Source: a virus (taxonomy: Duplodnaviria > Caudoviricetes). Taken from it: a DNA stretch of 64,000 bases. The translations under genes and the position numbers were made by a program. Position 1 is the first letter of the stretch. Each line of letters opens with the position of its first letter. Under the pieces are notes generated by a model. That model searched no databases, was not told the origin of the DNA, and saw only the letters and a list, made by a program, of their open reading frames with translations. Positions 26,723-62,648 of this stretch are shown here, one piece after another. Where the stretch lies: the IMG/VR virus record IMGVR_UViG_3300025410_000009. One strand, written 5' to 3'.

Positions 26723-26726
26723 CTGT

Positions 26727-27833
26727 TTACTTGGCGCTAGCAGCCAAAATATACTTGCCAAATCGTTTGTGGAACTCGGCAAAACTAGAAATCTTGCCAG
26801 GCACAAACGGTAAGCCGTATGTGGTAAGTGCAACACGAGCACCCATAACCACAAGCTCGGTAGTAAAGTTATCCATCATGAAACGGAAGAAGTTGTCGGC
26901 TTGTGGGTGCCAGTCAGCCAGCTTGCCTTCAGCATTGAGTTTGGTGTACGAATCTTGCAATTCGTAGCACAGGCTAATGGTCAAACTGTAGCAGGCACTG
27001 ACTTCTTTGGTCTTGAGTTCTTTGACCTTGCCGCTCAAGACATCACGGGGCTCGGGCATCTGATCAGACACTTTGCGGTGTGCCATGAACTTGACAGCAA
27101 GACCTTCGCCAATTGTGCCAGCAATAAGGTCCATGTTGGTGCTGTCGTTGTTGCCATCTTCCAACAACTCGCTCACAAAGGTCCATGAGCGTGGTGTAGC
27201 AAAACTACGACCTGAACTACGTGGGTCAAAGTCGTACAAGTCTTGCTTGGCAAAACTCAAGTAACCCACCACGTCTTTGTGGATCTTGTTGTTGACAGCC
27301 CACACTTGCCAAGAATCAAAGTCGGGACGCATTTCTAAGTGAACAAAACGATTTGCCAACGGAGTAGGCATACGGTAGCTGATGCCCTTGTCACTCTCGC
27401 GATTGCCTGCGGCCACGATGACAACATTGTCAGGCAACTTGTACTTACCGACTCGGCGATTCAAAATCAATTGAAACGCGGCACCTTGTACAGCTGGTGC
27501 GGCTTGGTTCATTTCGTCCAAGAACAAGATCACAATGGGATGCTGAGCAGCCATCTCTTCGTCAGGCAGTTCCACAGGAGGAGCCCAATCCATCTTGCCG
27601 CTGTCGCGATTGAAAAACGGAATACCACGGATGTCAGTGGGCTCCATTTGACCCAGGCGCAAGTCGATAGTGATACCGCCCAGTTCTTCGCCAATGCCGG
27701 CCACCAACTCACTCTTGCCAATGCCGGGAGGGCCCCACAAGAACAAGGGACGCTGTTTCTTAAAACAGCGCAAGATGCCGTTGCGGGCATCAACTGCGGT
27801 GACTGTACGGGTTTCACTGATTGCTGTAGACAT
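26727..27833 (-). CDS. MoxR/dynein-related AAA+ ATPase
   Basis: Walker A GPPGIGKS, Walker B ILFLDEMN, AAGNR, PLANRF and TPRSW. Confidence 0.92.
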   Translation of the reverse strand: MSTAISETRTVTAVDARNGILRCFKKQRPLFLWGPPGIGKSELVAGIGEELGGITIDLRLGQMEPTDIRGIPFFNRDSGKMDWAPPVELPDEEMAAQHPIVILFLDEMNQAAPAVQGAAFQLILNRRVGKYKLPDNVVIVAAGNRESDKGISYRMPTPLANRFVHLEMRPDFDSWQVWAVNNKIHKDVVGYLSFAKQDLYDFDPRSSGRSFATPRSWTFVSELLEDGNNDSTNMDLIAGTIGEGLAVKFMAHRKVSDQMPEPRDVLSGKVKELKTKEVSACYSLTISLCYELQDSYTKLNAEGKLADWHPQADNFFRFMMDNFTTELVVMGARVALTTYGLPFVPGKISSFAEFHKRFGKYILAASAK

Positions 27834-37122: not shown

Positions 37123-37530
37123 TTAATTTTTATGATGTTGCCACACAGTGTCGGATCCACCTAGGTGTCCCCAATCACTGTCTACTGTCAATTTACTTGA
37201 AATGCCACCACGTGGGCGGAACTCAATTTCTAATCTAATACGATCGGGCTCGTAAGCTGCCATCAAGTGCTTGTACATGACATCTAGCGCCCGCTCATAA
37301 CTAATTATGGTACTTCGGTACTGGAACAAATAATTCTTTAGACTCTTGAGTTCTATAGTTTTATCTTTGCCGTAGAACCATATGGTAATAAAGCCAAAGT
37401 CGGGTTGGTCACGAACACCCAGGAAAGTGAATTCTGGGATTGTGATTTTCTGTTCGTAACCACGTGCAGCATTGGGTAGAGATTTTAGGATCGAACCATC
37501 GATCGTGTTCCACAGTTTCTTTTCAGTCAT
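37123..37530 (-). CDS. queF: QueF type I-like T-fold protein lacking the catalytic Cys
   Basis: [14 protein letters not shown] aligns to QueF PEFTSLCPxTGQPDF with C replaced by G. The QueF motif ELKSLKNYL, the downstream conserved Glu (SYE) and F.PRGGIS are retained. Confidence 0.75.
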
Positions 37531-37532
37531 GA

Positions 37533-38624
37533 TTAAAACAAGTTAATTTTTTCCCAAGGCAATTCAACCTTGCCAAAATGTCCGTAATTGGTGGTTGCGC
37601 TGTAGATTGGACGGAACAGATCAAAACGATCAATAATGCCCTTGGGAGTAAGATCCACGTTGTCTTGAATCCACTGAGTCAGTGCACGACTGTTATGATC
37701 ACTTTCAACATAAAAGCTCATGGGATCTTTCATGCCAATGGCATAACTGATCTGCACAGTGGCCCATTTGGCTCGACCAGTGGCCACAATGTTCTTGGCC
37801 AAGTAGCGCATCATGTATGCTGCCGAGCGATCCACCTTGGTGGGGTCTTTGCCCGAGAAAGCACCGCCGCCGTGTGGAGCATAACCGCCATAAGTGTCCA
37901 CAATGATCTTGCGTCCAGTTAATCCGGTATCACCATCAGGTCCACCAATCACAAAACGGCCAGTGGGATTGATAAAGAACTCGGTGTGACTATCAATGTA
38001 CTTGGCTGGAATTGCAGATCTAATGATTTGATCTACTCGTGTACGCACAGTTTCAATATCAACATCGGGTGCATGCTGTGTTGAGCAAACAATCTTGGCA
38101 ATACGCACTGGATTGTTGTTGTCATCGTATTCAAAAGTGACTTGACTCTTGGCATCGGGCCGCAACCAAGTTTCGCCACTTTTTCTAGCAAGTGCAAGTG
38201 CCTGTACCACTTGGTGGCTCCAGTAGATGGCACTGGGCATCAAGTTACCAGTTTCAGTAGATGCATATCCAAACATGAGACCTTGGTCGCCAGCACCAAA
38301 AGTGTCGGTGCCTAGTGTAATGTCAGCACTCTGTCCGTGTAAGAGATTGGTAATCTGCACATCGCGCCAGTCAAAACCTTCTTGTTCATAACCGATATCT
38401 TTGATTACATTACGAATAGTGGTTTCGACTTGAGCGTTGTCTAGTGTGCCCTTATACTCACCGGCCACTATCACTTTGTTAGTGGTAACCAATGTTTCAC
38501 ATGCACACCGCATGGTGGGGTCTTGGTGGGCCATGACCAAATCAAGAATACCATCACTGATGGCATCTGCCACCTTATCTGGATGTCCTTCGCTAACACT
38601 TTCGCTTGTAAATAAGTAACTCAT
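37533..38624 (-). CDS. metK: S-adenosylmethionine synthetase
   Basis: LFTSESVSEGHPDKVADAISD, GAGDQGLMFGYA, DTGLTGRKIIVDTYGG and GGGAFSGKDPTKVDRS. Start at MSYLF. Confidence 0.97.
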   Translation of the reverse strand: MSYLFTSESVSEGHPDKVADAISDGILDLVMAHQDPTMRCACETLVTTNKVIVAGEYKGTLDNAQVETTIRNVIKDIGYEQEGFDWRDVQITNLLHGQSADITLGTDTFGAGDQGLMFGYASTETGNLMPSAIYWSHQVVQALALARKSGETWLRPDAKSQVTFEYDDNNNPVRIAKIVCSTQHAPDVDIETVRTRVDQIIRSAIPAKYIDSHTEFFINPTGRFVIGGPDGDTGLTGRKIIVDTYGGYAPHGGGAFSGKDPTKVDRSAAYMMRYLAKNIVATGRAKWATVQISYAIGMKDPMSFYVESDHNSRALTQWIQDNVDLTPKGIIDRFDLFRPIYSATTNYGHFGKVELPWEKINLF

Positions 38625-38644
38625 ATTTTCCTTTATATATTTTT

Positions 38645-38923
38645 TTAAACTGTAACCAATGCCCATATCAGGTGTTCGTCTCTGCTGTGCCACCGTGTTT
38701 CATAAACTGGTTCACCAGGACCAGTCCATGTTGCGGTGCCTTGATAGCCACGCCGGAACCAAATAAGTTTATCGGTAAGTGCACACCGTTTGGGCAACAG
38801 CGCAAACTTTTCTTTCCATACCGCTCTATGATAAAATGCATCCTGATGGAATTTGTACCAGTGTCCATCACTCATCAGCTCAGGACTTTTTGCAAGTTGG
38901 CCTTCATAGCTGAATCCAAACAT
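38645..38923 (-). CDS. Hypothetical protein
   Basis: Start MFGFSYEG, 1 nt after the queE stop. Confidence 0.5.
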   Translation of the reverse strand: MFGFSYEGQLAKSPELMSDGHWYKFHQDAFYHRAVWKEKFALLPKRCALTDKLIWFRRGYQGTATWTGPGEPVYETRWHSRDEHLIWALVTV

Positions 38924-38924
38924 G

Positions 38925-39773
38925 TCAAGTGCCCCATTCGTTCTTGAATAGCGGTACTTGCAATCGATCACTATAACGCCAACCACGTGTCAGTGCCATT
39001 AAGGCCACTGCTTTGTTGTTTAATGCATATACACTTTCAACACCGCCCACTGGCATCAAATAAACATGTCCAGTAAATCCAGCTCTACGATATTCGTCAA
39101 CTGCTTGCTCGGCATCACGCAAATCTTGCTCGGTGGATACAACAAACTTCAAATAGGTGGTTCCCACTTCTTCGTATGCACACACAATCTCGGGCTTGAT
39201 AGCATCTTCCCACTTCTCGCCGCTTGCTGGAAGTTTAGCACTCACTGAGAATGTGATTTCGTTATCAAAACCAGTACCTATCCATTCAATTAAATAGTCT
39301 TTAAATTCTGGAGTTAAGTTTTGAGTACCATTTGTTTCAAAGGTGATTTCTTTTAGATCTGCCATCTTGGGATGACTTAACAAGTCAGGATAAGCACGTT
39401 GCCAACCCAACAAGGGCTCGCCGCCCGTGATCACCAAATGTTCATCTTTCCACGTACCATGCGGAATAATATCCATAATACGCTCGGCAATTGCGTCAGT
39501 ATCAAGTAAGGGAGATAGATGCTTAAAATCAGGATGCCAACTGGCATAGCTATCACAACCGGTAGTGACAAGAGGAAGTTCTTCATATTTGTTATACAAG
39601 TGCATCACTTGGGCAAGGTCTTCAGCTTCGGTACTCAGCTGGCCTCGTGGCATGCCAAATCCTGCACAGCGGAAATTACAGCCGAAAGTACGTAAAAAGA
39701 CACTAGGTACACCCATGTACCTTCCTTCTCCCTGTACGCTGTAAAACAGTTCTGCAATTTTAATCTTGCTCAT
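38925..39773 (-). CDS. queE: 7-carboxy-7-deazaguanine synthase (radical SAM)
   Basis: ELFYSVQGEG.YMGVPSVFLRTFGCNFRC...GCDS, VITGGEP, ETNGT, YLKFVV and RLQV. Confidence 0.93.
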   Translation of the reverse strand: MSKIKIAELFYSVQGEGRYMGVPSVFLRTFGCNFRCAGFGMPRGQLSTEAEDLAQVMHLYNKYEELPLVTTGCDSYASWHPDFKHLSPLLDTDAIAERIMDIIPHGTWKDEHLVITGGEPLLGWQRAYPDLLSHPKMADLKEITFETNGTQNLTPEFKDYLIEWIGTGFDNEITFSVSAKLPASGEKWEDAIKPEIVCAYEEVGTTYLKFVVSTEQDLRDAEQAVDEYRRAGFTGHVYLMPVGGVESVYALNNKAVALMALTRGWRYSDRLQVPLFKNEWGT

Positions 39774-40038
39774 AGACAGTGGACCATTTCTTTAGTTTTG
39801 CAATTTTGTTGTCGGCAGCTACACTGATCTGTTCACTGCCCACTATGTTGAATTTGATACACAAATCAATCATGGCTTGTAAATCACCCAGCTCTTCGGC
39901 CAAGTGTTCACGGTTGGTTTTAGGCTTACCGGGCTTGACGTTGTCTAAACCAAAACGATTACATTTACTGATGGCTTGTATAACTTCGGCACATTCTTCG
40001 GACAGAATGTTCATGACTTCAACAACTTGTTTATTCAT
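39760..40038 (-). CDS. MazG-like all-alpha NTP pyrophosphohydrolase
   Basis: ILSEECAEVIQAISK...LAEELGDL (ExxE...ExxD). Start reassigned to MNKQVV. Confidence 0.7.
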   Translation of the reverse strand: MNKQVVEVMNILSEECAEVIQAISKCNRFGLDNVKPGKPKTNREHLAEELGDLQAMIDLCIKFNIVGSEQISVAADNKIAKLKKWSTVYEQD

Positions 40039-40174
40039 CATCATGCCGATTGTTTTGTTCAATGCCGTACTGTTCATACAACCACTTGATAAAACGCTCA
40101 ATGTCAAGGCTGGGATATGCATACATTTTGTATGCCACGGTGACTTTCTCTAACCATTCTTTATCTTTTAACAT
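40031..40174 (-). CDS. Small hypothetical protein (47 aa; not in ORF track)
   Basis: Read manually as MLKDKEWLEKVTVAYKMYAYPSLDIERFIKWLYEQYGIEQNNRHDDE*. It has a GAGG RBS and overlaps the start of the next gene. Confidence 0.6.
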   Translation of the reverse strand: MLKDKEWLEKVTVAYKMYAYPSLDIERFIKWLYEQYGIEQNNRHDDE

Positions 40175-40245
40175 GTATACCTCACTACTATATTTTGCTA
40201 TGATAACACAAATTGCTTAAAAAAGCAACAACGAGTTTTACCAAA

Positions 40246-40440
40246 CTAGATTTGGTTCCAGTGGCATATGACGCCGGCTATGATAAAACAATTGGTCATG
40301 ACATACGACAGCACAATCACAGTGCGTATACCAGCAACACGATCGGCTTCTTGATCGGTGTTGCTGGTCTTTTCGCCCAGGGCCTTGGCCCATAGACGCC
40401 AAAGCGTTTTAACCTTCGTAGATAGCCGAATTAGCACCAT
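40246..40440 (-). CDS. Small membrane-associated hypothetical protein
   Basis: WRLWAKALGEK...IRTVIVLSYVMTNCFIIAGVICHW has a hydrophobic C-terminal segment. The start is uncertain. Confidence 0.5.
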   Translation of the reverse strand: MVLIRLSTKVKTLWRLWAKALGEKTSNTDQEADRVAGIRTVIVLSYVMTNCFIIAGVICHWNQI

Positions 40441-40894
40441 GTTCGAATACTTCAACTGATTTGATTCTTACACTGGGGTTAATGGGGTAACGTTGGTCAC
40501 CTTGAGTCAGTAGCTCGGCCATTTTGTCGTAGCACATCTTGGCAAACATTTCGCAACCGACACCAGGCACAATGCGTAAATCGCATACACCGCTGTCTTC
40601 GAATCCACCACCAATGGCGTTCAGTTGCTTGAAAGTTTCCAAGTGTGGATCATCTTCGGCAATGACCAAGGTGTGATCAAACATGGTGTCGGCCCAGGCC
40701 TTGAATCCTTTGAGACCACCAAAGTCCATGCACCAGTTTTTGTCATCCAGTGTGTCGCACTCAAATACGAGCTTGATGCCAATTGAGTAACCATGCAATG
40801 TCGAGCAGTGGCTATGTGAAGCACGCCACTGTCTAAAACAGCAGGACAGCCCTCTGTCGTTACCGTATGTTTTTGTTGAGTAAAATTTTGCCAT
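40409..40894 (-). CDS. queD: 6-carboxy-5,6,7,8-tetrahydropterin synthase
   Basis: CSTLHGY (CxxxHG), W..DFG.LK...FDH and GCE..A...E.FE. Confidence 0.92.
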   Translation of the reverse strand: MAKFYSTKTYGNDRGLSCCFRQWRASHSHCSTLHGYSIGIKLVFECDTLDDKNWCMDFGGLKGFKAWADTMFDHTLVIAEDDPHLETFKQLNAIGGGFEDSGVCDLRIVPGVGCEMFAKMCYDKMAELLTQGDQRYPINPSVRIKSVEVFEHGANSAIYEG

Positions 40895-40911
40895 GTTATT
40901 CTCCTATGTTA

Positions 40912-40975
40912 ATTATAGCATAGGCGGCGGAGTTTGTAAAGCGGGACGATGCCGATAGACCGCTAGAGATATTTA
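40912..40975 (-). promoter_or_regulatory. Dual promoter for queD: late TAAATA (40970-40975) and TTTACA-N17-TATAAT (40912-40940)
   Basis: Both elements read directly upstream of the AGGAG RBS. Confidence 0.6.
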
Positions 40976-41170
40976 TTGCAGGTTGTAGTGGCTGAGAATA
41001 GATTGCTCAGCTTCAACATTTTGCTTTCGTGCAAGATTGGCACATTCGCGCACCAGCAGTTCAGCAAAGTGTTCAAGCATGGCACCACCCACTTCGGGAT
41101 AGTGACTACCGCCTACTTCCAAGGCAAGTTCGATAAATTTGGGATTGGTCATTGTGGGTTTGGTGTTCAT
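40973..41170 (-). CDS. Hypothetical protein
   Basis: 65-aa ORF (FAELLVRECA) coupled by an ATGA overlap. Confidence 0.55.
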   Translation of the reverse strand: MNTKPTMTNPKFIELALEVGGSHYPEVGGAMLEHFAELLVRECANLARKQNVEAEQSILSHYNLQ

Positions 41171-41568
41171 GATGGTTGTTTAAGTAAATGCATGGAAATA
41201 ATTTTGCCCAATTCGCGATCGAAGTTTTTCTTATCGTCGGGGATGATATAAAGTTCAGCCTGTGAATTGCTGGCAGCACAGCGTACCACATAGCCGCCAT
41301 TGGCTTTCACAATCGAAAATGTAAGTTCAGAGTTTTCAAGCATAGTGTTAATCAAGTTTCTTCTAGAAAGGGTGTTTAAGGTATCGGAAAGGTTGAAGTT
41401 ACCATATTGGTTAGTGCCCCAAACACCGGTTTGGTTAGTGGTATAGGTGTATCCGCCACTACCTACGGCACCAATAGTCAATGGTGCAAGTGTTGCACCG
41501 GGAATGACAGTACAGCCGGCAGTATTGCCTGACAGCGTGATGTTGTTTGAAGTTGCCATGTTTGACAT
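41167..41568 (-). CDS. Hypothetical protein; C-terminus resembles 46127..46429
   Basis: Start MSNM with GAGG RBS. C-terminal TFSIVKANGGYVV...FDRELGKIISM. Confidence 0.55.
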   Translation of the reverse strand: MSNMATSNNITLSGNTAGCTVIPGATLAPLTIGAVGSGGYTYTTNQTGVWGTNQYGNFNLSDTLNTLSRRNLINTMLENSELTFSIVKANGGYVVRCAASNSQAELYIIPDDKKNFDRELGKIISMHLLKQPS

Positions 41569-41569
41569 A

Positions 41570-42469
41570 TCAAGCCTCGGGGTCAACAGCCAAGCCTTGC
41601 CAGGCCTTGATTTTGATTTCATCAACATCGGCTACATCTTCGCTCCACGAACTGATCCATCTGGCACCGGTCCATTTGGCTTGATGTGTCCAGCTGTTGC
41701 GTCCAGCAGTTTTAATTGTGTAGATGCCCTCACGTGCTGGTTTGATTTTTTTAGGGAACCACTCGGTCATGGGGTACTCAATGTCATCCATGTTGGTATA
41801 CTTGATGTACTGACCATTGTTGTATTTTTGCGAGCCAGCAATGTAGAAACCAAAGTCGCTGCTCTTACCGTCGGTGCCACCACCGTCGTTGTCGATATCA
41901 ACATCATTGTAGCTGACACCCACAACAAACTCTTCACAATCAAAATCAGTCAACAACAATGTCAATTTAGTGATGTCAAACGGTGCTGTGAGTTCAATAG
42001 CACCCTCGAAGAAAGTGCCCTTTTCGTTACTAGTGCCTACGAATACCACTACATCGTCACCACGTTCGTCGATCCAAATTTCTTCTGTAGTTGACAGTTC
42101 AGGGCCGTCGTCTAAACCATTACAGTCGCCTAGTTCGATTTCCAGTACAGAATTCCCGTTTTCGTCAAATATTTCCATAGAGCCAGCATCTTTACTGACA
42201 CCGTTGATGTGTCCCATGTCATCGCACTCGTACCATGAGCCAGGCGAAAATGGCCACATTTCTTCGGGAATGTTGTTTTCTTCTGCGTATTCGCTGTTCC
42301 ATGCAAAGTCGCTAAGGTCCAGTCTACGACTGCAAAAGTAATCGTAGATTTCTCGCGATACGGTGCCCATGACACGTTCGCCACCATAACCCCACATACT
42401 GACACGATATGTGCGTGGAGTAAACTTTAAAACTTCTAATAGATATTCTTGATCTTCAATTGTGGCCAT
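41570..42469 (-). CDS. Acidic hypothetical protein
   Basis: Start MATIEDQE with AAGG RBS. D/E-rich, with C-terminal module PMTEWFPKKIKPAREGIY. Confidence 0.7.
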   Translation of the reverse strand: MATIEDQEYLLEVLKFTPRTYRVSMWGYGGERVMGTVSREIYDYFCSRRLDLSDFAWNSEYAEENNIPEEMWPFSPGSWYECDDMGHINGVSKDAGSMEIFDENGNSVLEIELGDCNGLDDGPELSTTEEIWIDERGDDVVVFVGTSNEKGTFFEGAIELTAPFDITKLTLLLTDFDCEEFVVGVSYNDVDIDNDGGGTDGKSSDFGFYIAGSQKYNNGQYIKYTNMDDIEYPMTEWFPKKIKPAREGIYTIKTAGRNSWTHQAKWTGARWISSWSEDVADVDEIKIKAWQGLAVDPEA

Positions 42470-42473
42470 GATG

Positions 42474-43220
42474 TTACCTTGGTGCAAATTCTTGCTGTAG
42501 TTTGATGTTGTCAAAAAATTCTTTTTTGGTATTACCGTCGTCTTTAAAAGAACCTTTTAGTACAGTGGTCTGTGTTAGACTAGAGTGTGCCATGATGCCA
42601 CGATTCTCACAGCATCCATGTGTCATCTGCATGTATACACCGATGTCATCTGCGCCTGTGGCCTTGCCTATTTCTTTAGCAATGTCGTTACAAAGTTCCT
42701 CCTGGAGAGTACCCCGTCGGGCACACCATTGTGCAATACGTGTATACTTTGATAAGCCAATAAGTTTCTGAGCCGCAATAATGCCAATATAAGCAACACC
42801 AGTAACGGGTTGGTGATGATGGCTACACATGCTACGAAGCTCACTACGAACCACTAGCATGCCCTCATAACGATCCGCTGAGTCATTTGGAAATGCTGTA
42901 GCGTCGGGTGCTGGGTCATATCTACCTGCCATTACTTCGTTAAAATACATCTTGGCCAGTCTACGTGCTGTACCTTTACTGTTAGGATCGGTTTCGCGAT
43001 CAATGAGTAATCGATCTAGTACTGTTTCAAAAGCCTCTGCGGCTTCGTCAATAAGTTTTTCTTTGAATTCTTCACTAACGTATTCGCTAATGTTATCACC
43101 TGCCCAAAAACGCTTGCCCTCGCGTTTCATTTTAAAGCGAAGGTGATCGCCTAAGTAGGCTTCTTCATATCCGCCATCGCCTGCCATTGCGTCCAGGCCT
43201 GTTTCATTTTTAGTTGTCAA
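42474..43220 (-). CDS. folE: GTP cyclohydrolase I
   Basis: TARRLAKMY, SMCSHHHQP, GLSKYTRI, QEEL and HGCCENRG. Confidence 0.95.
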   Translation of the reverse strand: MTTKNETGLDAMAGDGGYEEAYLGDHLRFKMKREGKRFWAGDNISEYVSEEFKEKLIDEAAEAFETVLDRLLIDRETDPNSKGTARRLAKMYFNEVMAGRYDPAPDATAFPNDSADRYEGMLVVRSELRSMCSHHHQPVTGVAYIGIIAAQKLIGLSKYTRIAQWCARRGTLQEELCNDIAKEIGKATGADDIGVYMQMTHGCCENRGIMAHSSLTQTTVLKGSFKDDGNTKKEFFDNIKLQQEFAPR

Positions 43221-53920: not shown

Positions 53921-54919
53921 CTAGTGCGGCAGTCCTAATTTTTTAGCTCGAGCTGGACTGGTGTTGACATGTAATGTTGCATGTGGTACTTGGCCGTTCT
54001 TGCCAACCGCAACCAGTTTACCAGGGTCAGCACCAATGCCATAGTTGATGTCGGGCACAGTTTCATCTAGCGATTTTTCGGCGGCTGGTACATAAGCTGG
54101 TATTGCAGTCATACCGCGCATGCTGGCTGCCAGTGCTCGATGATTACCATCAATGATATATCCATCGGCATCTACCACAATGGGTTTATTTTTAATATCA
54201 TGTGTGGGAATTGCATTAACATGCGATCTGTCAATGTCTAGTACACGATCGTACGGATCTTCTGGTTCGTCTTCACTTGCGGGATCAGGTATATGCAACT
54301 GAGTTAGCGGAACTGTGCGAAGTTCCCAGTGAGGGTGAGCCACCACTAGGCTTTTTAAGAAACCACCGCCTTGCTGGTCACTGGGGTGTATACGTTTAAC
54401 ATATTTCCAAACTTCGGCAGCAGTGAACAATTGTTGCGGTTGTTGGTCTTCGCCAATCTTGTCGTATGCTCTACGGTCAGTGAGATGAAACACCATGCCA
54501 TCAACTGGATCTTTTTTGCTGTACAACTCCCAATTGGGCAACAAACGCTTAATCATCTTGGCATATAATTCAATACGACTATCTTCTTTGGCATTGAATG
54601 TGATTTCTTCTACTTTGTCGATGCCGTATTCTTTTAAGAATGCACGGATAATATCTACTGCGGTTGATAACACTTGTGCAGAATTACCTGTACCAGTCTT
54701 TCCAAACAAATCCAAGTCAGCAGGATCGTTTTCATGATCTCTTAATAAGCGAAATTGTATTTCCCACTTTTTGGGATCGCTACCTGTAAAGGCTTGCCAA
54801 AGATATTCTCTGTTGCCTACCTTAAAAAACGCAGAGGCTTCATCATCGCTGCGACGTGCCCACTCCCAGTTTGTTTTACCAGGTTGAAATACTTCGGCAA
54901 TAAATTCACGTGCTCTCAT
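53921..54919 (-). CDS. Modular putative head-packaged protein: unknown domain + ParB/Srx-like domain
   Basis: N-terminus MRAREFIAE. C-terminal PIVVDADGYIIDGNHRALAASMRG (ParB-like). The N-terminal domain is paralogous to a domain in 54916..56871. Confidence 0.65.
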   Translation of the reverse strand: MRAREFIAEVFQPGKTNWEWARRSDDEASAFFKVGNREYLWQAFTGSDPKKWEIQFRLLRDHENDPADLDLFGKTGTGNSAQVLSTAVDIIRAFLKEYGIDKVEEITFNAKEDSRIELYAKMIKRLLPNWELYSKKDPVDGMVFHLTDRRAYDKIGEDQQPQQLFTAAEVWKYVKRIHPSDQQGGGFLKSLVVAHPHWELRTVPLTQLHIPDPASEDEPEDPYDRVLDIDRSHVNAIPTHDIKNKPIVVDADGYIIDGNHRALAASMRGMTAIPAYVPAAEKSLDETVPDINYGIGADPGKLVAVGKNGQVPHATLHVNTSPARAKKLGLPH

Positions 54920-56871
54920 TTTTTATTGGCCTTTGCTCGTCCTGCCTTCATGTTGGCCAACCAGTGCGCCATACGTGCTTTTTCACCTGTGCTGTGTTTA
55001 GCAGTATTTCTTAAACTACTGACTGACGCTTTGGTATTTACACCCATGCGTTTGGCTAGACCCTTGCGTCCAGGATTTTTGCCATCAGCAAAGTTTTCCG
55101 CTACACTCTGTTCCCATACATTTTTACCAGGCTTGTGTTTGTCCCAAAAGCCGGCACCAGCATCAGTCTGTTGACCACTACGACGTATCTTATAACCTTT
55201 GCTCTTTACGTAGTCATACATTGTTTTAGCAATGCCTTGACCTTGATAGCGTTCTTCAACTTCTAGGTCTTGTGGTAGTAGATATTCACCATCAAATGCA
55301 AATAACACATGACCCAACTCACGACCATCGTTACTGGCAACGACATATAGTACTTGGTTATCGTAGTCGTCATCGTCCACATACTCATCATCTTTTTGTA
55401 TTTCCATAGAGATATCTATGCCATTGAAGTTTTCTGAATCTTCTTTTACTTTTTGTTCATTGCGTGTTAGCTTATATCCTGTTTGTTCAGGATAATCTAT
55501 TTTTTTTAAGTTGTAGCCTAACTGTGTAGCATATCTTTGAACTAATCTATCATATAGTTTTGTTCTGCTGCCAGTGGGATCTTCTTCTTTTACTGCGGAG
55601 AAAAATAGAGTATTGGGTTTTTTCTTTTTAATAAATTTACTAATAGCATTTAATACTGTGGCAAATACTCGTTGAGCATCACCTTCTCCGGTGACCGATT
55701 GACTGTTGCTTCTATAAAATTCAACACCCCAATCATTCTCTGACATGTCAGCAAGATTAAACATGATGCTTAGAGGAGTACCGTCTGGTAATTTAGCCAA
55801 TGCATCAACATCGCCGTAATCACTCTTTTCCCATTTAATCGGATAAGGTTTATCAAATGCTTCTTGCAATGAGTCCTCGTCCAAGTTAAATGCTTTCAAG
55901 TTCTTTTCAATTTGTCCAGGACGAACATCTTTTGTAAGACTCATCGAGTAGCGTGGATCGCGAGCCTGTGCCTTGGTGGCAATGACTCCAGATGCTTCTT
56001 GTACGCCATTGATGATCTTGTCCCATTTGGCCTGTAGGGCATTCTTCAAATCCACTGTGGACTTGATACGATTGGCCTGCATGTATTTTATAATTTCTAC
56101 TACACTAGCACGGTCGCTGGAATTGGGTTTACGCCCATTGCTTAGATCTACAGCCAAGTTGTTGTCCTCGTTGGGGCGGCTGTAGTATCTTATATTTTTC
56201 AACAAGCGTTGTGCACGATCACTAAGGTGTTGCACATTGTTCTTGGTCAGCAATTCAATCCAGGGTTTGACATAGTCAGTGGGCTTGCGCGAGTATCCGG
56301 CTGGTGTTGCACCCTTGAGTACATCTTGTGCTTGGCTGAGACTCTTGGCATGACGTGTGTCCAACAAGCGCCAAGCTGCTTCGTCGGTGTATAAAAAGAT
56401 TGGAAAGCCTTGCTGTTTGGCTGACAAGATCAGTTGGCGAGTTTCGGGGCTGCGATATTCATGCTGTTCTTTTAACAACACATGTATGGATTCAATTGCT
56501 TTGTTGGGTATAGTGGGTTCGGTGCTAAACACACGATCTTCGCTCTCTCTAGAACGTGTGCCATCGCTGTGTAACCAAGCACGTTCCCAGTAGTCAATGG
56601 GTTTAACCACATAGTTGTGATTGAACCAATCACCATTCAACTTGAACATGACACCGCTGGATCCCACAAAGCGATGATAGTCACCAGTGACCGATCTAGT
56701 CAAACTCAAAAAGAATGGACGACCTTTGGGTGCATACTGCTCTTCGCTGCGGTTGCCCACAACACTGGCCAATTCAAAGTTACCCGATTTAAGTATTTTT
56801 AATGCAGCTGGGATGGTGGTATAATGAAATAGTACGCTACTGGCACGTTCAAATAAATCGTGTACAAACAT
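54916..56871 (-). CDS. Polyvalent protein: ADP-ribosyltransferase-like + unknown domain + GNAT + basic C-terminal module
   Basis: LFHYT...FLSLTRS...RESEDR (ART-fold H/S/ExE order). GNAT motif A VEERYQGQGIAKTMY. Linkers VQE/A, LQE/A, VKE/D and VAE/N. Confidence 0.6.
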   Translation of the reverse strand: MFVHDLFERASSVLFHYTTIPAALKILKSGNFELASVVGNRSEEQYAPKGRPFFLSLTRSVTGDYHRFVGSSGVMFKLNGDWFNHNYVVKPIDYWERAWLHSDGTRSRESEDRVFSTEPTIPNKAIESIHVLLKEQHEYRSPETRQLILSAKQQGFPIFLYTDEAAWRLLDTRHAKSLSQAQDVLKGATPAGYSRKPTDYVKPWIELLTKNNVQHLSDRAQRLLKNIRYYSRPNEDNNLAVDLSNGRKPNSSDRASVVEIIKYMQANRIKSTVDLKNALQAKWDKIINGVQEASGVIATKAQARDPRYSMSLTKDVRPGQIEKNLKAFNLDEDSLQEAFDKPYPIKWEKSDYGDVDALAKLPDGTPLSIMFNLADMSENDWGVEFYRSNSQSVTGEGDAQRVFATVLNAISKFIKKKKPNTLFFSAVKEEDPTGSRTKLYDRLVQRYATQLGYNLKKIDYPEQTGYKLTRNEQKVKEDSENFNGIDISMEIQKDDEYVDDDDYDNQVLYVVASNDGRELGHVLFAFDGEYLLPQDLEVEERYQGQGIAKTMYDYVKSKGYKIRRSGQQTDAGAGFWDKHKPGKNVWEQSVAENFADGKNPGRKGLAKRMGVNTKASVSSLRNTAKHSTGEKARMAHWLANMKAGRAKANKK

Positions 56872-56880
56872 GGCCAACCT

Positions 56881-57315
56881 TTATTTTAGGCTGGCCTTGA
56901 GCATCCATCCATGTTTGCGATGTGCATCCATGCGTTCAGCCAGGAAGTTGCTGAAACCGTGCTCGCCGGCAGCTTCGGCCAAATCATAAATCATTTTAAG
57001 CACACGCAACATTTTTTCATTGTCGGCCAGTAATTCTGCAATCATGCCCACTTGATCAGGAACTGCAGTTTCGTCTTCGATTGTGGTCAGCATGCTGAAT
57101 CTAGTGTAGCTGGCAGGAACAAATGCTCCCAGTGCACGAATTTTTTCAGCAAAATCGTCGATGCTGTTGTAGACTTCGTCATATATGACTTCTAGTAGTT
57201 TGTGGTACTCGTAGAAGTCGGGTCCTGTGATGTTCCAGTGGAAATTGTGTGCCTTTAGATAAAAACTAAAAGTACTGGCAAATCCAATTTTGGCAGCTTT
57301 TTGTAATTCTTCCAT
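56881..57315 (-). CDS. dps: Dps / ferritin-like DNA-protecting protein
   Basis: KAHNFHWNITGPDF...H..LE..Y......D.FAEKIRALG and H.KH.WMLKA. Confidence 0.93.
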   Translation of the reverse strand: MEELQKAAKIGFASTFSFYLKAHNFHWNITGPDFYEYHKLLEVIYDEVYNSIDDFAEKIRALGAFVPASYTRFSMLTTIEDETAVPDQVGMIAELLADNEKMLRVLKMIYDLAEAAGEHGFSNFLAERMDAHRKHGWMLKASLK

Positions 57316-57333: not shown

Positions 57334-60300
57334 TTACCAAGCACGGCAACTCCAGTAGTTGGCTTTCCATCTTGGTCCGGGATTCTCACAGTGATGTCTA
57401 GCTCTAAAACTTTTTCTATGCTTGGGCAAATGTTTCTTGATGGTCATGTTTTTGTCGCCAAAGTTGACTTTGACAATTTTGCCGTTGGGCTTTTTGACAT
57501 ATACCTTGCTCTTTTTAACATCGCCCTTCATGGGCTTGCCCAGTGGCACTTTGCGTCCATGGTATTCGGCTTCGGTCAGTTCAACACCGTTGTCGGTCAG
57601 CATGTAGGTTGCGGTGTGATCAAATTCTAGCAAGACGCCGTCTTCGTAAGTTTCTAGTACCACGGTTTCAATTTCTTGATCGCCACATTCGATAATGAAG
57701 CCATCGCCCACTTGAATGCTTTCATTGGGCACACAGTTACGGACTTGTCCACCGTTCTTGCCTTTCTTGGTACCGGCAGCATGATGTCCGGGCCAGCATC
57801 GAGTATAACCATTGCTGTCTTTTTCGCCCTTGCGTATCTCGTTGATATTGCCGTGTGTTTGGCACATGCCGCAGTCGGGGCAGGTCATTTCCATTTCAAC
57901 ACTTTCGTTGTGTTTTTTCTTGCCGGCACAGTGAGCTCGTTGACTAAAGCCTTTTGGATGACTGCAATTGATACTGCGTTTGTATTTTTCACTCCAGGCT
58001 TCGCTCATGGGGTGATTCTCATCGCCCAAGAAAGTATCAGCCAGCATCTTGCACACCTTGACAATGTCTTGGTTGCTGGTTTCTTCCACTGTGAAACCAA
58101 AATCATCGTTGGCTTGTGTGGGATCCATGTAGCCACAGTAGACTTTCTTTACTGGACTGGCATCTATTAAATCAGTGCAACTGCCTTGATAGCGATCAGC
58201 CATGGCGCTATCGCAAGGGCTCAATGTTGTGATTATAATACTGCCTTCGGGAATCTCGCCATAACGGTCTTGGTATGCATTGATGGCATTGCGTTCAGCA
58301 TGACTCCACTTGCCGTCAACATTGGTGCTGGTGCGTGCTACCATACGGTGCTCGGGATCCAACACACAGGCAGCGACCATGCCAAATCGTTCTGAGTCAC
58401 GCTGTTGACCCTTTATGACAAGATCACCCAGTTTGACCAAATAACCATCTAGGTGTTTGCGATCGTGGATTTTAGAATCTTCTGAGCCTTCCGCCACACC
58501 TTGCTCAGGAGCATCCATCCAACTTTTTGTTAATTTAATTTGTGACAACGGTATGCGTTTCTTATCAGCAAGTTTCATTGCGTGACTTCTTGCCTCGTCC
58601 TCAGATGAGAAAATCTCTGGCTTATACTTGGTGTCATTGAGGATTTTACCGTTGACCCGAATATACCAATTGCCTCCAGTGCCCTCCGCCACACCTTGCT
58701 CGTTAATTCTTAATTGTTTCTTTGTGTAGGCGATATTACTATCAAAACTTTTTTGACCTTTTTCTTCTGTGTGTTTAGTTATATCTGAATGAATTTGTTT
58801 TCCACCAGCATAAACTCTTACTTGATATCCCCATGGTGTCTTATGTAGTTCATGTGTGTATGGTCCTATTGTTTCTGAGCGAATAACAGATTCTTTTAGT
58901 GAGCCTTCCGCCACACCTTTTTGTTTGTCCCACTCTTTGTCGGTCTTTACATTATATTCTTTTCCACCTGGGCCAATATCACTAACTCTGGCGCCAATTG
59001 GTTTGTTAGTTTTAACTACTGCAGGATTTCTAAATGCACCAGTTGGGGCTCGACGACCACCTTTTTCCCAACTTACTTCTTGATCGCCAAACATGCCGTT
59101 GCCTTCCGCCACACCTTGTCCTTCCTGTAATCCCGGAATAGGATGTAATCCTTTTGGAATTTGACCAGTCCAATGTTGTGATCCTGGTTTTGCTGGCAAA
59201 TCTCGTATGGCATTATCTTCTGCTAAATCACATAGTTTAGTATGATGCAAGAATATAGTGCTACCGCAATCGTAACAAGGATAGTTATCGGTTGGATCTT
59301 CTCCGTCATCGCCCATCGAGAACTCATTCAAAGAGCCTTCCGCCACACCTTTGTCTAATTCCCATATAGTTCTTAGACTACTGCCGCCATGGTCACTGAG
59401 TAATTCATCGATCATTTCGCTTACATGACTTTCTAATTTACCTTGTGCTTCTAGTCCAGCTCGTTCACCTTTGGCTATATAGATGCTGGCAACTTTCTTT
59501 GCATTGGCAAAATCTTTAGAGTCGTAACCCAACTCGTCATTTTCCGCTTCATATTCAGGTATGTATTTTAATATCATTTGACCAATGGCCGGACCTGGAT
59601 CTGCTTTTGCATCTTTGCCTTGTGCAATGTTAGTGATTTGATTTAGATCTTCAATTTGATTTATATTGCCATTTGCGCCCATACCTTGCCATACATTAGT
59701 TTGATACCCTGGCAGGCCAGTAGCCTGAAGACTGCGGTTCATTTCAGAAAAATATTTGTTGATTGCGGCCACGGTTTTAACTATCATAGCAGCCAGTTGT
59801 TTTTGATTGTGAGTGGTAAATTCTTTATTGGTATCAAAATACACATCGGTATAGCCTTGACCTTGTGCGGGCTCGACCAAATCCCAACCGTATTTTTGAC
59901 CAATGACTGTTAGTTGTTGTTCAATTCGATCAGGGGTAAATTTTAAGTATTTTAAGTCTTTTAACAACTGTCCAGGATCGTCAGTGGTGGCAGGCAAAGC
60001 TCGGCCATTTACTGTAGCACCACTTATCTTTTTAGATGGCTTCTCACTGGCATAACTGACTGCAACATATCCACTGACAGGATCGGGAGTGGTCTTTTGA
60101 ATGGCTCCCATCATCTTTTGGAACTTGGGATCATCGGTTGCGGCCTCCGCCACACCTTCACTTTTAGGTTTCTGATGATGCTTCTTCATGTTGATGGCAA
60201 TGGCGGCTTGCTGCGCTGCATTGGCAGCTTCTGAAACTTTAGGCACCAATCTAACAGTGACATCGCCATTGGGGTGACGGTGTGTTTTTTCAACCGAATA

Positions 60301-60993
60301 GCCCATCTTTTTCAATGCTGTTATCTGTTTGGCCACGTACGGACTTTTGCCAGTGACAACTTTGACTCCGTCTGTGGCAGCTTCGGAGACACTTTCTGTG
60401 TATGGTGACAGTGCTTGTTTGGCTCTAAAGTTACCGGGTTGTGATGCCAACCAAAGACCTAGGTCGCGCTTTTCAAAGTCGGTCAATCTACCACCGCTGT
60501 TGAACTTGTTTAACAGCACTTGGAAGTAGGGATTTTGTATACCTTTTTGTCTACGTGCAATTTCCAAACGATCAGCATAGGCGTCACGTGGTACAGGTTT
60601 AACTGGAGGTTTTTTATTGGTCATGAAACCCAGCACACCTTCATCAACATCAGACTCACCGCGAGCAATTAGTCTTTTTAATTCTTGCATTTGTTTGTCA
60701 ATGCTGTGATTTTGACTCCATACACTATGGTCGTCGCTGTATTGATAATTTTTATCAAAGCCAAGCTCTAATTGTGCTAGTTTTTGTTTGGCAGCAGCAA
60801 CTTGTTCTGCACTTGGTTTAGGCACCGGTGCATTTGCTGCTGCTTGACGTTGTGCCAGCTGTGCTTCGCGATCGGCCTTTAATTCAGCCCAAGTACGTGA
60901 CTTGCCTGAATAGCCTTTTGCACGTAAAATTGCCGCAAAATCGTCTTCAAGACTTTCCGACATACTTTGTTGGAATAAGTTATATAAGTTCAT
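57334..60993 (-). CDS. 1219-aa modular polyprotein with GVAEG linkers, Zn-deaminase domain and small basic/Cys modules
   Basis: Six GVAE(G/A) linkers. Deaminase HAE...TLSPC...C. Modules WSEKYKRSINCSHPKGFSQRAHC, CPDCGMC and CWPGH...NCVPNE, and C-terminal VKVNFGD...RKSFRARH.C...YWSCRAW. Confidence 0.8.
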   Translation of the reverse strand: MNLYNLFQQSMSESLEDDFAAILRAKGYSGKSRTWAELKADREAQLAQRQAAANAPVPKPSAEQVAAAKQKLAQLELGFDKNYQYSDDHSVWSQNHSIDKQMQELKRLIARGESDVDEGVLGFMTNKKPPVKPVPRDAYADRLEIARRQKGIQNPYFQVLLNKFNSGGRLTDFEKRDLGLWLASQPGNFRAKQALSPYTESVSEAATDGVKVVTGKSPYVAKQITALKKMGYSVEKTHRHPNGDVTVRLVPKVSEAANAAQQAAIAINMKKHHQKPKSEGVAEAATDDPKFQKMMGAIQKTTPDPVSGYVAVSYASEKPSKKISGATVNGRALPATTDDPGQLLKDLKYLKFTPDRIEQQLTVIGQKYGWDLVEPAQGQGYTDVYFDTNKEFTTHNQKQLAAMIVKTVAAINKYFSEMNRSLQATGLPGYQTNVWQGMGANGNINQIEDLNQITNIAQGKDAKADPGPAIGQMILKYIPEYEAENDELGYDSKDFANAKKVASIYIAKGERAGLEAQGKLESHVSEMIDELLSDHGGSSLRTIWELDKGVAEGSLNEFSMGDDGEDPTDNYPCYDCGSTIFLHHTKLCDLAEDNAIRDLPAKPGSQHWTGQIPKGLHPIPGLQEGQGVAEGNGMFGDQEVSWEKGGRRAPTGAFRNPAVVKTNKPIGARVSDIGPGGKEYNVKTDKEWDKQKGVAEGSLKESVIRSETIGPYTHELHKTPWGYQVRVYAGGKQIHSDITKHTEEKGQKSFDSNIAYTKKQLRINEQGVAEGTGGNWYIRVNGKILNDTKYKPEIFSSEDEARSHAMKLADKKRIPLSQIKLTKSWMDAPEQGVAEGSEDSKIHDRKHLDGYLVKLGDLVIKGQQRDSERFGMVAACVLDPEHRMVARTSTNVDGKWSHAERNAINAYQDRYGEIPEGSIIITTLSPCDSAMADRYQGSCTDLIDASPVKKVYCGYMDPTQANDDFGFTVEETSNQDIVKVCKMLADTFLGDENHPMSEAWSEKYKRSINCSHPKGFSQRAHCAGKKKHNESVEMEMTCPDCGMCQTHGNINEIRKGEKDSNGYTRCWPGHHAAGTKKGKNGGQVRNCVPNESIQVGDGFIIECGDQEIETVVLETYEDGVLLEFDHTATYMLTDNGVELTEAEYHGRKVPLGKPMKGDVKKSKVYVKKPNGKIVKVNFGDKNMTIKKHLPKHRKSFRARHHCENPGPRWKANYWSCRAW
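58484..60157 (-). repeat. Six dispersed in-frame direct repeats, core TCCGCCACACCT on + (GGT GTG GCG GA on -; encodes G-V-A-E)
   Basis: Cores start at + positions 58490, 58685, 58907, 59105, 59339 and 60146. Spacings are 195, 222, 198, 234 and 807 nt, all multiples of 3. Codons are identical in every copy. Confidence 0.92.
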
Positions 60994-61634
60994 TGTATTG
61001 TGGCCAGTTGTTGTCTTAGAGTATTCAATGCTTTGTTGTAAGCATTAATTTGATCTTGTATGGCTTTACGACGATCGGCTTTTTGTTGTTGAGCATCTGC
61101 AGCATTGGCAGCTGGTGTTGTATCAGTGGTTCCTGCTGCTGGTGGTGTTGTACCAGGTGCGGCTGGTGCACCGGGCAATGCCATACCAGTTACATCATCT
61201 TCAGATACATTTTTAGCAAACTGTGCCATATGGCGTAGGTGTGCATTTTTGCTATGGCTGGCTTTTTCCAATTTACCTTTAGGGATTTTTTCGCCCTGTG
61301 CCACGTGTAGTGCTTTGTGCAAGTCACCTTTGTTGGCTGGATTGACAGCTCGTTGAATCCATTTGTCAGTCTCTTCAACTTTTTCTTTTTCTTTTTCTTC
61401 TTTTTCCTTGGCTTGGATATCTTTCATGTCTTGATATCGCTTGGCCAATTTATCTTCAAGGTTGATTTCTTCGCCCACCAAACGATCATGGAATGGATGT
61501 TGTTTACCACGACTGACTGCTCGGTCAGTGCCGCGTACTTGGTCGCCGGGCTTTTGCTCGGGTTCACCAGCAAATTTAATTTTGTTACTTTCCATCAAGG
61601 TCAGTAGTTTGATCATGTCGCTGTTGTGACTCAT
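60990..61634 (-). CDS. Modular hypothetical protein (basic KWIQ...HKALHV...EKIP module; Ala/Pro/Thr linker)
   Basis: 214-aa ORF with LME/S, VGE/E, VEE/T and VSE/D linkers. Confidence 0.65.
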   Translation of the reverse strand: MSHNSDMIKLLTLMESNKIKFAGEPEQKPGDQVRGTDRAVSRGKQHPFHDRLVGEEINLEDKLAKRYQDMKDIQAKEKEEKEKEKVEETDKWIQRAVNPANKGDLHKALHVAQGEKIPKGKLEKASHSKNAHLRHMAQFAKNVSEDDVTGMALPGAPAAPGTTPPAAGTTDTTPAANAADAQQQKADRRKAIQDQINAYNKALNTLRQQLATIQ

Positions 61635-61993
61635 TTTGCGGTCCTTTTAATTATTTTTTTCTTGCCAAGCAAATTTTGTGGTGGGGCAGCAGCAATATTT
61701 ACACTACTGGTAATGCCACCGTCGGCATCTTCATGTATTGCACCAGCTGATTTAATTTCATATGCCAACCACTCACGCACAGTACGCAAGTAATCATCAG
61801 CCAAGGTAATTTTTTCGGCAGCCCATGCATCAAGGCCTTTTGCAGCATCTAGCTCTTTTAATAACTTGTGCAGTTGAATGGCATTGTTGGCAGCGTTATA
61901 ACATTCTTCACGTGCCATGTGTATTTGTTCACCAGTTACAGTTTTCTTAGCTACTACAACAGGATCTTCTTTAATGAAATCAGACTTTTTCAT
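61631..61993 (-). CDS. Hypothetical late protein
   Basis: Starts MKKSDFIKE, downstream of a full TATAAATA. Confidence 0.65.
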   Translation of the reverse strand: MKKSDFIKEDPVVVAKKTVTGEQIHMAREECYNAANNAIQLHKLLKELDAAKGLDAWAAEKITLADDYLRTVREWLAYEIKSAGAIHEDADGGITSSVNIAAAPPQNLLGKKKIIKRTAK

Positions 61994-62012: not shown

Positions 62013-62020
62013 TATTTATA
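62013..62020 (-). promoter_or_regulatory. Full T4 late promoter TATAAATA
   Basis: Exact T4 consensus upstream of the 61993-57334 gene run. Confidence 0.75.
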
Positions 62021-62648
62021 TGTTATTATTTGATAACTTGTGTTGCATGATATGTAGCACAGCATCATTGAATCTACCAAACAAATCAGTCACTATTTTC
62101 TTTTGTGTTTCGGGATTGCTGCTAGCAAATAGTGCACGAATTTCAGTAGCACTCTGCATGGGTTTGCCTAATACAGTGAAGTCTACTGTGGGCACAGTTT
62201 TGATATAGGCATGATGCTCAAAGGTGTTCATGTCATTGGGATTGCGTGGCATGGGTTGGAAGTAGGCTGGCGTGCCATCTTTTTTGGTCCACGAGGCAAA
62301 GCGCGGATCTTCGGCCATGTCTTTTTCGCTGACTGCAAAAATCAATCGTGTTGTAGCAGGATCATATCGGCTGACCAATTCTGGTGCTCGATATGGTTGA
62401 TTGGTTTCGATCACACGATCTAGGTGTACACCAGTCAAGGCCATGAACTGTGCCTTGTCGCTAAAGCTAAAAGGACTCTTGGGTGGATCGATTTTGTTGC
62501 TGGTGGCAACAAACACATGGTCGCGACCGTATGTGCGTACTAGGCCATCATAGACTGCTTTGTGACCCTTGTGCCATGGCTGAAAGCGTCCGGGATAAAC
62601 TACCAGGACGCTTTCTTGTACAGATTCAAATAATTCAGCAATTAACAT
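62016..62648 (-). CDS. HxGH nucleotidyltransferase (NMNAT/cytidylyltransferase-like)
   Basis: VVYPGRFQPWHKGH and C-terminal SATEIR (SxT motif). N-terminus MLIAELFE. Confidence 0.8.
   Translation of the reverse strand: MLIAELFESVQESVLVVYPGRFQPWHKGHKAVYDGLVRTYGRDHVFVATSNKIDPPKSPFSFSDKAQFMALTGVHLDRVIETNQPYRAPELVSRYDPATTRLIFAVSEKDMAEDPRFASWTKKDGTPAYFQPMPRNPNDMNTFEHHAYIKTVPTVDFTVLGKPMQSATEIRALFASSNPETQKKIVTDLFGRFNDAVLHIMQHKLSNNNI

Follow-up and report, generated by a model that had tools for sequence, protein, structure and literature searches.

Why does the same short stretch of DNA, silent sites included, stand at the joints between unrelated segments of a single phage protein? The question is raised by a 64,000-nucleotide (nt) stretch of DNA from a virus of the Caudoviricetes (Duplodnaviria; IMG/VR record IMGVR_UViG_3300025410_000009), which we call the window, and in particular by the sequence TCCGCCACACCT, which occurs six times within it. 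All exact matches are on the plus strand (58490, 58685, 58907, 59105, 59339 and 60146), and a search allowing up to one mismatch still returned exactly six sites. The count expected by chance is 0.18, and six was reached in none of 100 shuffles. All copies lie in frame within a single open reading frame (ORF) of 1219 amino acids (aa) on the minus strand (57334-60993), referred to below as P0001, at spacings of 195, 222, 198, 234 and 807 nt, each divisible by three. The copies stretch to 20-28 nt (TGAGCCTTCCGCCACACCTT, identity 85-100%).

In the frame of the gene the repeat reads GGT GTG GCG GA(A/G) followed by GG(C) or GCC, encoding the linker G-V-A-E-(G/A), which is preceded by Q, K or E. The Ala codon GCG is used in six of six linkers as opposed to 4.6% of the Ala codons in the other ORFs of the window, and six sites would agree in all three codons with a probability of about 5.6e-8. 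A further [LIVM]-A-E site, in ORF 21694-22671 of the window, uses the common codons GTT GCA GAA. Since the five modules between the copies are mutually unrelated, falling into five separate sequence clusters, recent tandem duplication is no explanation of the repeat. The first-pass annotation of this DNA had described six in-frame copies, synonymous codons shared beyond the need of the protein, frame-keeping spacers that encode mutually unrelated modules, and a VAEN variant in the neighbouring polyvalent gene; each of these descriptions is borne out by the exact scan, the codon counts and the clustering, the variant being TTCCGCTACAC (S-V-A-E-N). The junctions and their variants are as follows, with positions in the window and a slash at the candidate cleavage point.

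60142-60159, minus strand: junction 1, GAA GGT GTG GCG GAG GCC, E-G-V-A-E/A; metagenome contigs diverge at 60144 and 60164
59335-59352, minus strand: junction 2, AAA GGT GTG GCG GAA GGC, K-G-V-A-E/G; the block shared with locus L132 starts inside it; contigs diverge at 59360 and 59324
59101-59118, minus strand: junction 3, CAA GGT GTG GCG GAA GGC, Q-G-V-A-E/G; the L132 block ends here after GGTGTGGCGGAAG; one contig diverges at 59101
58903-58920, minus strand: junction 4, AAA GGT GTG GCG GAA GGC, K-G-V-A-E/G, followed by a second site, SLKE/S; contigs diverge at 58919, 58922 and 58926 (three runs)
58681-58698, minus strand: junction 5, CAA GGT GTG GCG GAG GGC, Q-G-V-A-E/G; contigs diverge at 58678 and 58681 (three runs)
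58486-58503, minus strand: junction 6, CAA GGT GTG GCG GAA GGC, Q-G-V-A-E/G; contigs diverge at 58483, 58486, 58505 and 58506
60229-60237, minus strand: variant site V-S-E/A, which opens a conserved 28-aa peptide (AANAAQQAAIAINMKKHHQKPKSEGVAE) ending at junction 1; a contig diverges at 60232
60640-60648, minus strand: decayed first junction, G-E-S-D-V-D-E/G; the L132 orthologue has G-E-Q-G-V-A-E/G in the same place
55096-55106, plus strand: decayed junction S-V-A-E/N (TTCCGCTACAC; minus strand GTG TAG CGG AA), within the adjoining polyvalent gene 54916-56877

The junction is shared with many other phages. The same DNA, (GAG)CAAGGTGTGGCGGAAGGC, stands between unrelated modules in at least 100 IMG/VR phage contigs. 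A scan of IMG/VR with GGTGTGGCGGARGGC gave at least 120 contigs; the 15-mer is in frame as GVAEG within an open frame of at least 150 aa in 100 of the contigs listed, and in 134 of the 154 individual matches listed. A second scan was queried with the protein instead of the linker and gave 76 loci, in which the exact sequence GGTGTGGCGGAA is found in 63 of 83 GVAE linkers, against 0.36% predicted by the codon usage of the same ORFs. The linker consensus is (GAG)CAA GGT GTG GCG GAA GGC. In the codon ahead of the linker Gly (CAA, GAA or AAA) the residue varies (Q, E or K) and the bases AA stay constant, which means that the DNA is conserved where the residue is not.

We took homologous modules of less than 90% aa identity (30-90%) and scored the third base at conserved four-fold codons. 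The third base is shared at a fraction of 0.36-0.51 in the module bodies versus 0.67-0.86 in the linkers at their ends. The head proteases of junction-bearing genomes are 67-91% identical to one another. With proteases this diverged and saturated bodies set against conserved linkers, the uniformity reflects neither codon bias nor plain recent descent. The locus is a clear natural case in which something besides the encoded peptide keeps silent sites conserved over many genomes. In a genome-wide scan of near-complete relatives, the 11-mer occurs just 1-6 times per record of 260-367 kb, mostly clustered in one or two genes, and on these counts a Chi-like or genome-wide signal was rejected. Sinorhizobium phage Phosso, the nearest by DNA polymerase, is without the 11-mer, so that the search yielded no cultured model.

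The segments set apart by these junctions are listed here together with the leader and the C-terminal part of the gene.

57334-60993, minus strand: P0001, putative cargo polyprotein gene, 1219 aa; the stop of the gene upstream (60990-61634) overlaps its start
60955-60993, minus strand: N-terminal leader MNLYNLFQQSMSE/S, a candidate capsid-targeting peptide with a hydrophobic-x-Glu end; the L132 orthologue begins MSSILKGITINE/S
59338-60144, minus strand: module aa 284-552 (269 aa), about 70% DNA identity to a module of L052
59104-59337, minus strand: module aa 553-630, Cys-rich; a recently exchanged cassette whose body is identical in L132
58906-59103, minus strand: module aa 631-696; two halves, each found elsewhere with different partners
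58684-58905, minus strand: module aa 697-770, AT-rich, with a G+C content (GC) of 0.36 and a third-position G+C content (GC3) of 0.20; 93% DNA identity to a module of L205
58489-58683, minus strand: module aa 771-835, a cassette found in other contexts in other contigs
57337-58488, minus strand: C-terminal block without GVAE junctions; deaminase and three small modules, with candidate sites MSE/A (58000-58008) and LTE/A (57571-57579)

Modules are exchanged at the junction. Window positions 59103-59351 match L132:7652-7900 at 99.2% over 249 nt, with only two mismatches, both in the left linker, and with unrelated flanks. The identity begins inside the left linker, which in L132 is the variant Q-D-M-A-E-G, and ends in the right linker after GGTGTGGCGGAAG; in their orthologous N-terminal part the two genes show just 75% identity. 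Module aa 771-835 is found linker to linker at 98% DNA identity in L126 and L127, 97% in L138 and L139 and 92% in L140, each time with different neighbours. In the adjoining polyvalent gene, a 78% DNA match of the GNAT region to L132 stops at 55096, and the GNAT module upstream of the decayed S-V-A-E/N site has consensus GVAE junctions on both sides in L132. Module content is thus not fixed among orthologues: the 160 internal modules of 82 distinct polyprotein frames make up 139 clusters, and the order of shared modules differs.

The breakpoints sit in the repeat. Among matches of at least 90% identity, we counted the internal ends that lie within 12 nt of a linker and compared the count with 1000 random trials. 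At a linker we found 35 of 51 ends, versus 3.4 expected (random maximum 11), and the remaining ends are mostly at variant linkers such as GMAE, DMAE, GLAE and VSE. In four lake metagenomes, contigs leave the window sequence for unlike sequence at the positions of all six junctions. At least 18 of the 22 loose contig ends listed are at the six junctions and one (60232) is at the VSE/A site. Logan assemblies use a word size of 31 bases; the repeat is shorter, and if that word size holds here, repeat-induced assembly chimeras are unlikely.

We consider it probable that the ORF is the precursor of head-packaged cargo in a jumbo T4-like freshwater phage, and that its linker is a cleavage site and a recombination patch in one. 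Small, independently folding, unrelated modules would be joined by (Q/K/E)-G-V-A-E/G, a peptide that would fit the rule of T4-type prohead proteases, which is to cut after Glu in hydrophobic-x-Glu. The N-terminal leader would take the precursor into the prohead, where it would be cut into single proteins that are injected along with the DNA. In the DNA itself, the 18 linker bases (CAAGGTGTGGCGGAAGGC) would form an in-frame, scarless homology patch, at which general phage recombination could exchange, insert, delete and reorder modules, in one phage or between phages that co-infect a cell. A cassette with the consensus on both sides would move and one with drifted junctions could not, which would leave the silent sites of the junction fixed across the lineage. 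The fixation is best read as a transmission bias, in that only cassettes with consensus junctions would move and hence be seen. T4-type recombination needs only short homology, genes being shuffled at the repeats of early-promoter stem-loop (PeSL) cassettes by the general recombination system (PMC2839356), and the in-frame glycine-rich motifs (GRMs) of gp38 are a shuffling site in T-even phages (PMC3157838). As with these two, homologous recombination at a short conserved in-frame sequence appears to be the best fit; we infer both this agent and the reason for the silent-site conservation.

Several points weigh against this explanation. Eighteen bases are short for efficient T4-type recombination, and a constraint at the level of RNA or translation would yield the same silent-site pattern. 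Exchange is not exclusive to the 18-mer, as some breakpoints are at other conserved peptides or in the interior of a module (the halves of module aa 631-696 have separate relatives). Metagenome joints from 58506 to 60144, from 58507 to 58680 and from 59360 back to 58891 have shorter sides of just 21-36 nt, and were rejected as proof of excision or duplication. The P3 residue of the linker is V and not the classical L/I of T4. No protease gene was found in the 64-kb window, to which the search was confined. That the protein is packaged into the head and cut by a prohead protease of the T4 type is what we infer from the sequence.

In T4, gp21 cuts after Glu in L/I-x-E, and an Asp in place of this Glu blocks processing (PMC9026906); internal proteins carry a 10-residue leader that sends them to the prohead and is later removed (PMC9026906, PMC3012670). 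We used MKTYQEFIAE as the T4 capsid-targeting sequence for comparison. Leaders ending in hydrophobic-x-Glu, alike by motif only, are found in P0001 (MNLYNLFQQSMSE/S), in P0003 (MRAREFIAE/V) and in stand-alone homologues of module aa 697-770 (MKTF[RK]ELRE/S). These homologues (73-74 aa) begin MKTF[RK]ELRE/SVIRSE... behind a late-promoter-like TAAATA, and the polyprotein reads ...GVAE/GSLKE/SVIRSE... at the corresponding point; they appear to give the most direct support for cleavage and packaging. A gp21-type protease (PF03420, Peptidase_S77; E 1e-25 to 1e-29) is encoded in four of five large junction-bearing records. Such a Peptidase_S77 gene is also present in G001, where it adjoins the portal, scaffold and capsid genes; several x-A-E sites occur in the G001 scaffold, and ...YLSE/SATAG in the G001 capsid protein. 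In a 968-aa polyprotein of L138, a twin-arginine (Tat) signal (DLSRRGFLKGAGAAGALAGAAGGANA, with SRRGFLK; L138:3687-3749) begins three residues past a GVAE linker. A Tat signal works only at a free N-terminus, so its place after this linker makes sense only if the protein is cut there, and it hints that one released L138 module is exported to the host periplasm.

The linker could instead be a mere flexible spacer in an uncut multidomain polyvalent protein, maybe unpackaged, in which case the shuffling of the DNA would still hold. There are known polyvalent proteins, some of which are packaged without processing, the virion RNA polymerase of N4 being one (PMC5512222). We regard this as unlikely: the motif ends in Glu after hydrophobic-x like the T4 sites, the stand-alone copies of a module carry a T4-capsid-targeting-like leader ending in L-R-E/S in the same place, a Tat signal comes right after one linker, and related genomes encode gp21-type proteases.

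Two further likenesses concern processing sites. The leader of the L126 polyprotein (L126:5653-5950; RYILESETAGATGSGSIATV) resembles the predicted maturation site of the major capsid protein in a related phage (L198:14767-15939; KYLSESATAGATSAGNVATL), with 55% identity over 20 aa and a pairwise E of 1e-4. In L200-L203, which are junction-bearing relatives, the gp21-type protease starts with M(A)LYLKENLTFDRASMVVE/S, where self-cleavage is possible as at LIE-9 of T4 gp21.

Silent sites might also be fixed for a reason of RNA or translation, with recombination as a by-product: a folding pause set by rare codons or by a Shine-Dalgarno-like sequence (AAGG..GGUG..AAGG), or an mRNA processing site. 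The rare codon GCG is almost always used, conservation reaches the xAA before and the GGC after the core, and the linker sits exactly between independently folding units. However, other [LIVM]-A-E sites in the window use common codons, and no start codon stands at a fixed distance past the junction. No Rfam family matches at the junction, by which a known RNA family was rejected, and no structure is common to the contexts. A pause would also not require 18 identical bases in genomes whose proteases are only 67% identical. On balance we find such a constraint rather improbable. A group II intron-like GUGYG start was dismissed as well, since the frame is open throughout and modules of 195-234 nt would be far too small for such an intron.

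Recent common descent, with linkers copied along with their modules and no constraint on silent sites, would account for modules that travel with their linkers and for exchanges of which some are very recent. It is very unlikely in view of module bodies near silent saturation (0.36-0.51) at 30-90% aa identity next to linkers at 0.67-0.86, and of the same 12-mer standing beside 139 unrelated module families.

Least probable of all is an enzyme dedicated to the 18-mer, whether an integron-type recombinase or a homing-type endonuclease: the junction is uniform far beyond the need of the peptide and confined to these genes, and the PeSL authors likewise left a helper protein open (PMC2839356), but the tyrosine recombinase family PF00589 is absent from five related records (674 kb in total; 14 of 14 control genomes matched), recombinase, homing endonuclease, HNH and GIY-YIG domains are absent from the 49 window ORFs scanned, the junction contexts show no inverted repeat and no common hairpin, and crossovers fall at differing points within and beside the 18-mer. 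For the hairpin, the six 60-nt junction contexts were folded as single-stranded DNA and gave z of -0.74, +0.90, -0.34, +1.05, -0.11 and -2.64, with no shared, attC-like structure. The mechanism is not integron-like, and the first-pass annotation, which had used that term, fails on this point. Its proposal that the repeat is at once recombination site and cleavage linker fares better: module content varies among orthologues, the breakpoints lie in the repeat, neither codon bias nor recent tandem duplication accounts for the shared codons, and the dual role is the best reading, with cleavage and packaging still at the level of prediction.

Tentatively, we would go one step further and suggest that the 18-base junction is itself selected, as an in-frame recombination signal that makes head-cargo polyproteins an open cassette system. 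Freshwater jumbo phages might in this way share well over a hundred injectable mini-proteins, with cassettes passing between stand-alone, leader-bearing genes and fused arrays. Such a system would be a counterpart of integrons and polymorphic-toxin cassettes without a dedicated recombinase.

Capsid-targeted cargo, shuffling at short repeats and the gp21 rule are each known; what is undescribed is their combination, in which an in-frame 18-base junction with conserved silent sites would double as a cleavage linker. Our literature search found no paper with this linker in a phage context. The internal-protein loci of T-even phages are said to be shuffled at conserved leader sequences, in work attributed to Repoila et al. 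in 1994.

The internal proteins of T4 (IPI, IPII, IPIII and Alt) are likewise diverse, non-essential cargo with a short leader; they are cut behind the Glu of hydrophobic-x-Glu and enter the host along with the DNA (PMC3012670, PMC9026906), a processing that is predicted here. T4 has a separate gene and leader for each cargo, whereas here the cargoes are fused in frame with a repeated internal site and a Val at P3. In PeSL cassettes, short conserved repeats likewise flank non-essential ORFs, and general recombination deletes, inserts and moves the cassettes (PMC2839356). Excised PeSL circles have been sought by inverse PCR. PeSLs are longer, structured regulatory elements that stand between genes and combine an early promoter with a stem-loop terminator; the 18-nt junction here stands within a frame, has no stem-loop and is also a peptide linker. 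The GRMs of gp38, a T-even adhesin, are conserved in-frame motifs between hypervariable segments, with exchanges within or near the motifs (PMC3157838), but they form the core of one folded domain in fixed order, and here whole unrelated domains are free in number and order.

Polyvalent proteins carry many effector domains in one long chain, which is delivered along with the invading DNA (Iyer et al. 2017; PMC5512222). At least two unrelated effector domains are present in both P0001 and P0002 (the adjoining polyvalent gene), and the ParB-like, GNAT and DUF6934 neighbours in the window are typical of the class. The paper on these proteins proposes autoprocessing by a built-in metallopeptidase and makes no mention of a conserved linker or of shuffling (PMC5512222). 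Here, in contrast, no Pfam peptidase domain was found in P0001, P0002 or P0003, including a zincin-like metallopeptidase of the polyvalent type; the sites fit the rule of the head protease, and conservation of the junction extends to its DNA. Integrons (IntI, attI, attC) are arrays of unrelated cassettes bracketed by a recurring sequence, with a large shared pool. Unlike in integrons, no integrase and no attC hairpin were found here, and there are no separate promoterless cassette ORFs, all modules lying in one frame of 1219 codons translated as one protein.

Phages inject proteins against host defences. If cargo is swapped between phages at a scarless in-frame junction, its expression, packaging and release would all stay intact, which would explain how this arsenal is renewed. 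The 18-mer is also a simple search handle: metagenomes mined with it could yield hundreds of small proteins, mostly of unknown kind, whose delivery into cells is probable, candidate anti-defence factors among them. To engineers, the arrangement suggests a natural way of loading T4-like capsids with several proteins at once.

In all, P0001 holds a deaminase and at least seven unrelated modules. A Pfam scan of the protein found only the cytidine/dCMP deaminase domain (aa 871-954). Naming the cargo by Pfam and PHROGs gave almost nothing beyond deaminase, GNAT, DUF5872 and ParB-like, and an Atlas search of the cargo found unnamed viral clusters only, with scores below 0.8. A fold search of the modules returned many unnamed phage proteins of 60-80 aa as well as common small folds, WGR-like ones included (best Z 7.0). 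AlphaFold2, run on aa 545-840 as a single sequence with no alignment, folded two modules confidently, with a predicted local distance difference test (pLDDT) score of 77-91, module aa 697-770 among them; confidence dips at the linkers.

The first-pass annotation had also taken several modules to be AT-rich, which is clearly true of 58684-58905 alone. The GC of the window has a mean of 0.449 (standard deviation 0.041), the other modules lie within about one standard deviation of it, and GC3 across the gene is 0.20-0.50. The foreign composition of module aa 697-770 fits its 93% DNA match to L205, a low-GC contig (37.7%) with a 115-aa mini-polyprotein that has the consensus junction and carries this module. 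Over the module, the summed depth of lake metagenome contigs is 3-7 times that of its flanks.

The modules of the C-terminal block match other contigs and stand-alone marine-phage genes separately, the matches ending at about aa 997, 1093 and 1140. The last modules (57337-58008, minus strand, aa 996-1219) are separate small genes in marine phages, among them Pelagibacter phage HTVC008M, Roseobacter CRP phages, whose homologues are annotated 'HVA1 family protein', and cyanophages; they also occur in spindle-shaped viruses of Nitrosopumilaceae from fresh water. Module aa 631-696 (58906-59103, minus strand) has an internal breakpoint at about aa 656, near ...NPAVVKTNK..., which is not a GVAE junction. 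The basic 28-aa peptide AANAAQQAAIAINMKKHHQKPKSEGVAE (60145-60228, minus strand, aa 256-283), which runs from VSE/ to GVAE/, shows 80-89% DNA identity in more than 20 contigs and is found again in L132, L175 and L205; instead of a spacer, it may be a small internal peptide that is conserved. A 35-aa tail, TNKPIGTRVSDIGPGGKEYNVKTDKEWDKQK, stands before linkers in many otherwise unrelated contexts.

As for the phage itself, the family-B DNA polymerase of the window (phrog_262, E 1.7e-190) is closest to those of jumbo phages (52% aa identity to Sinorhizobium phage Phosso, 43% to Escherichia phages of 350-380 kb), and T4-type baseplate and fibre genes are also present. No close DNA relative was found among cultured phages; near-identical DNA is found only in freshwater and lake metagenomes. 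Several neighbours of the polyprotein gene look like head cargo by their sequence (53921-54919, 54916-56877 and 62016-62648), and a putative late promoter lies upstream.

62013-62020, minus strand: T4 late-promoter-like box TATAAATA, upstream of the gene run 61631-61993, 60990-61634 and the polyprotein gene, for which it may be a working late promoter
53921-54919, minus strand: P0003, ParB-like domain; begins MRAREFIAE/, a candidate head-internal protein
54916-56877: P0002, polyvalent gene with DUF6934 and GNAT domains
62016-62648: cytidylyltransferase-like gene; begins MLIAELFE

Between the two polyvalent genes lies a Dps/ferritin-like gene (56881-57315, minus strand; PF00210, E 9e-20) with an ATAAATA box of its own, and the syntenic locus L205 has a ferritin gene in the same place. 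Elsewhere in the window, at 37123-43187 and 22668-23570, there are genes of 7-deazaguanine synthesis (GTP cyclohydrolase I, a 6-pyruvoyl-tetrahydropterin synthase (PTPS)/QueD-like protein, a radical S-adenosylmethionine (SAM) enzyme and a QueF-like protein), alongside SAM synthetase, S-adenosylhomocysteine hydrolase, MazG, several methyltransferases and thymidylate synthase; this gene set suggests that the phage DNA is hypermodified. A single ORF of 3933 aa (1328-13129, plus strand) adjoins the baseplate and fibre genes, and a gene pair at 25393-27833 (minus strand) encodes a DUF2201 protein (putative metallopeptidase and VWA-like domain) and an AAA ATPase.

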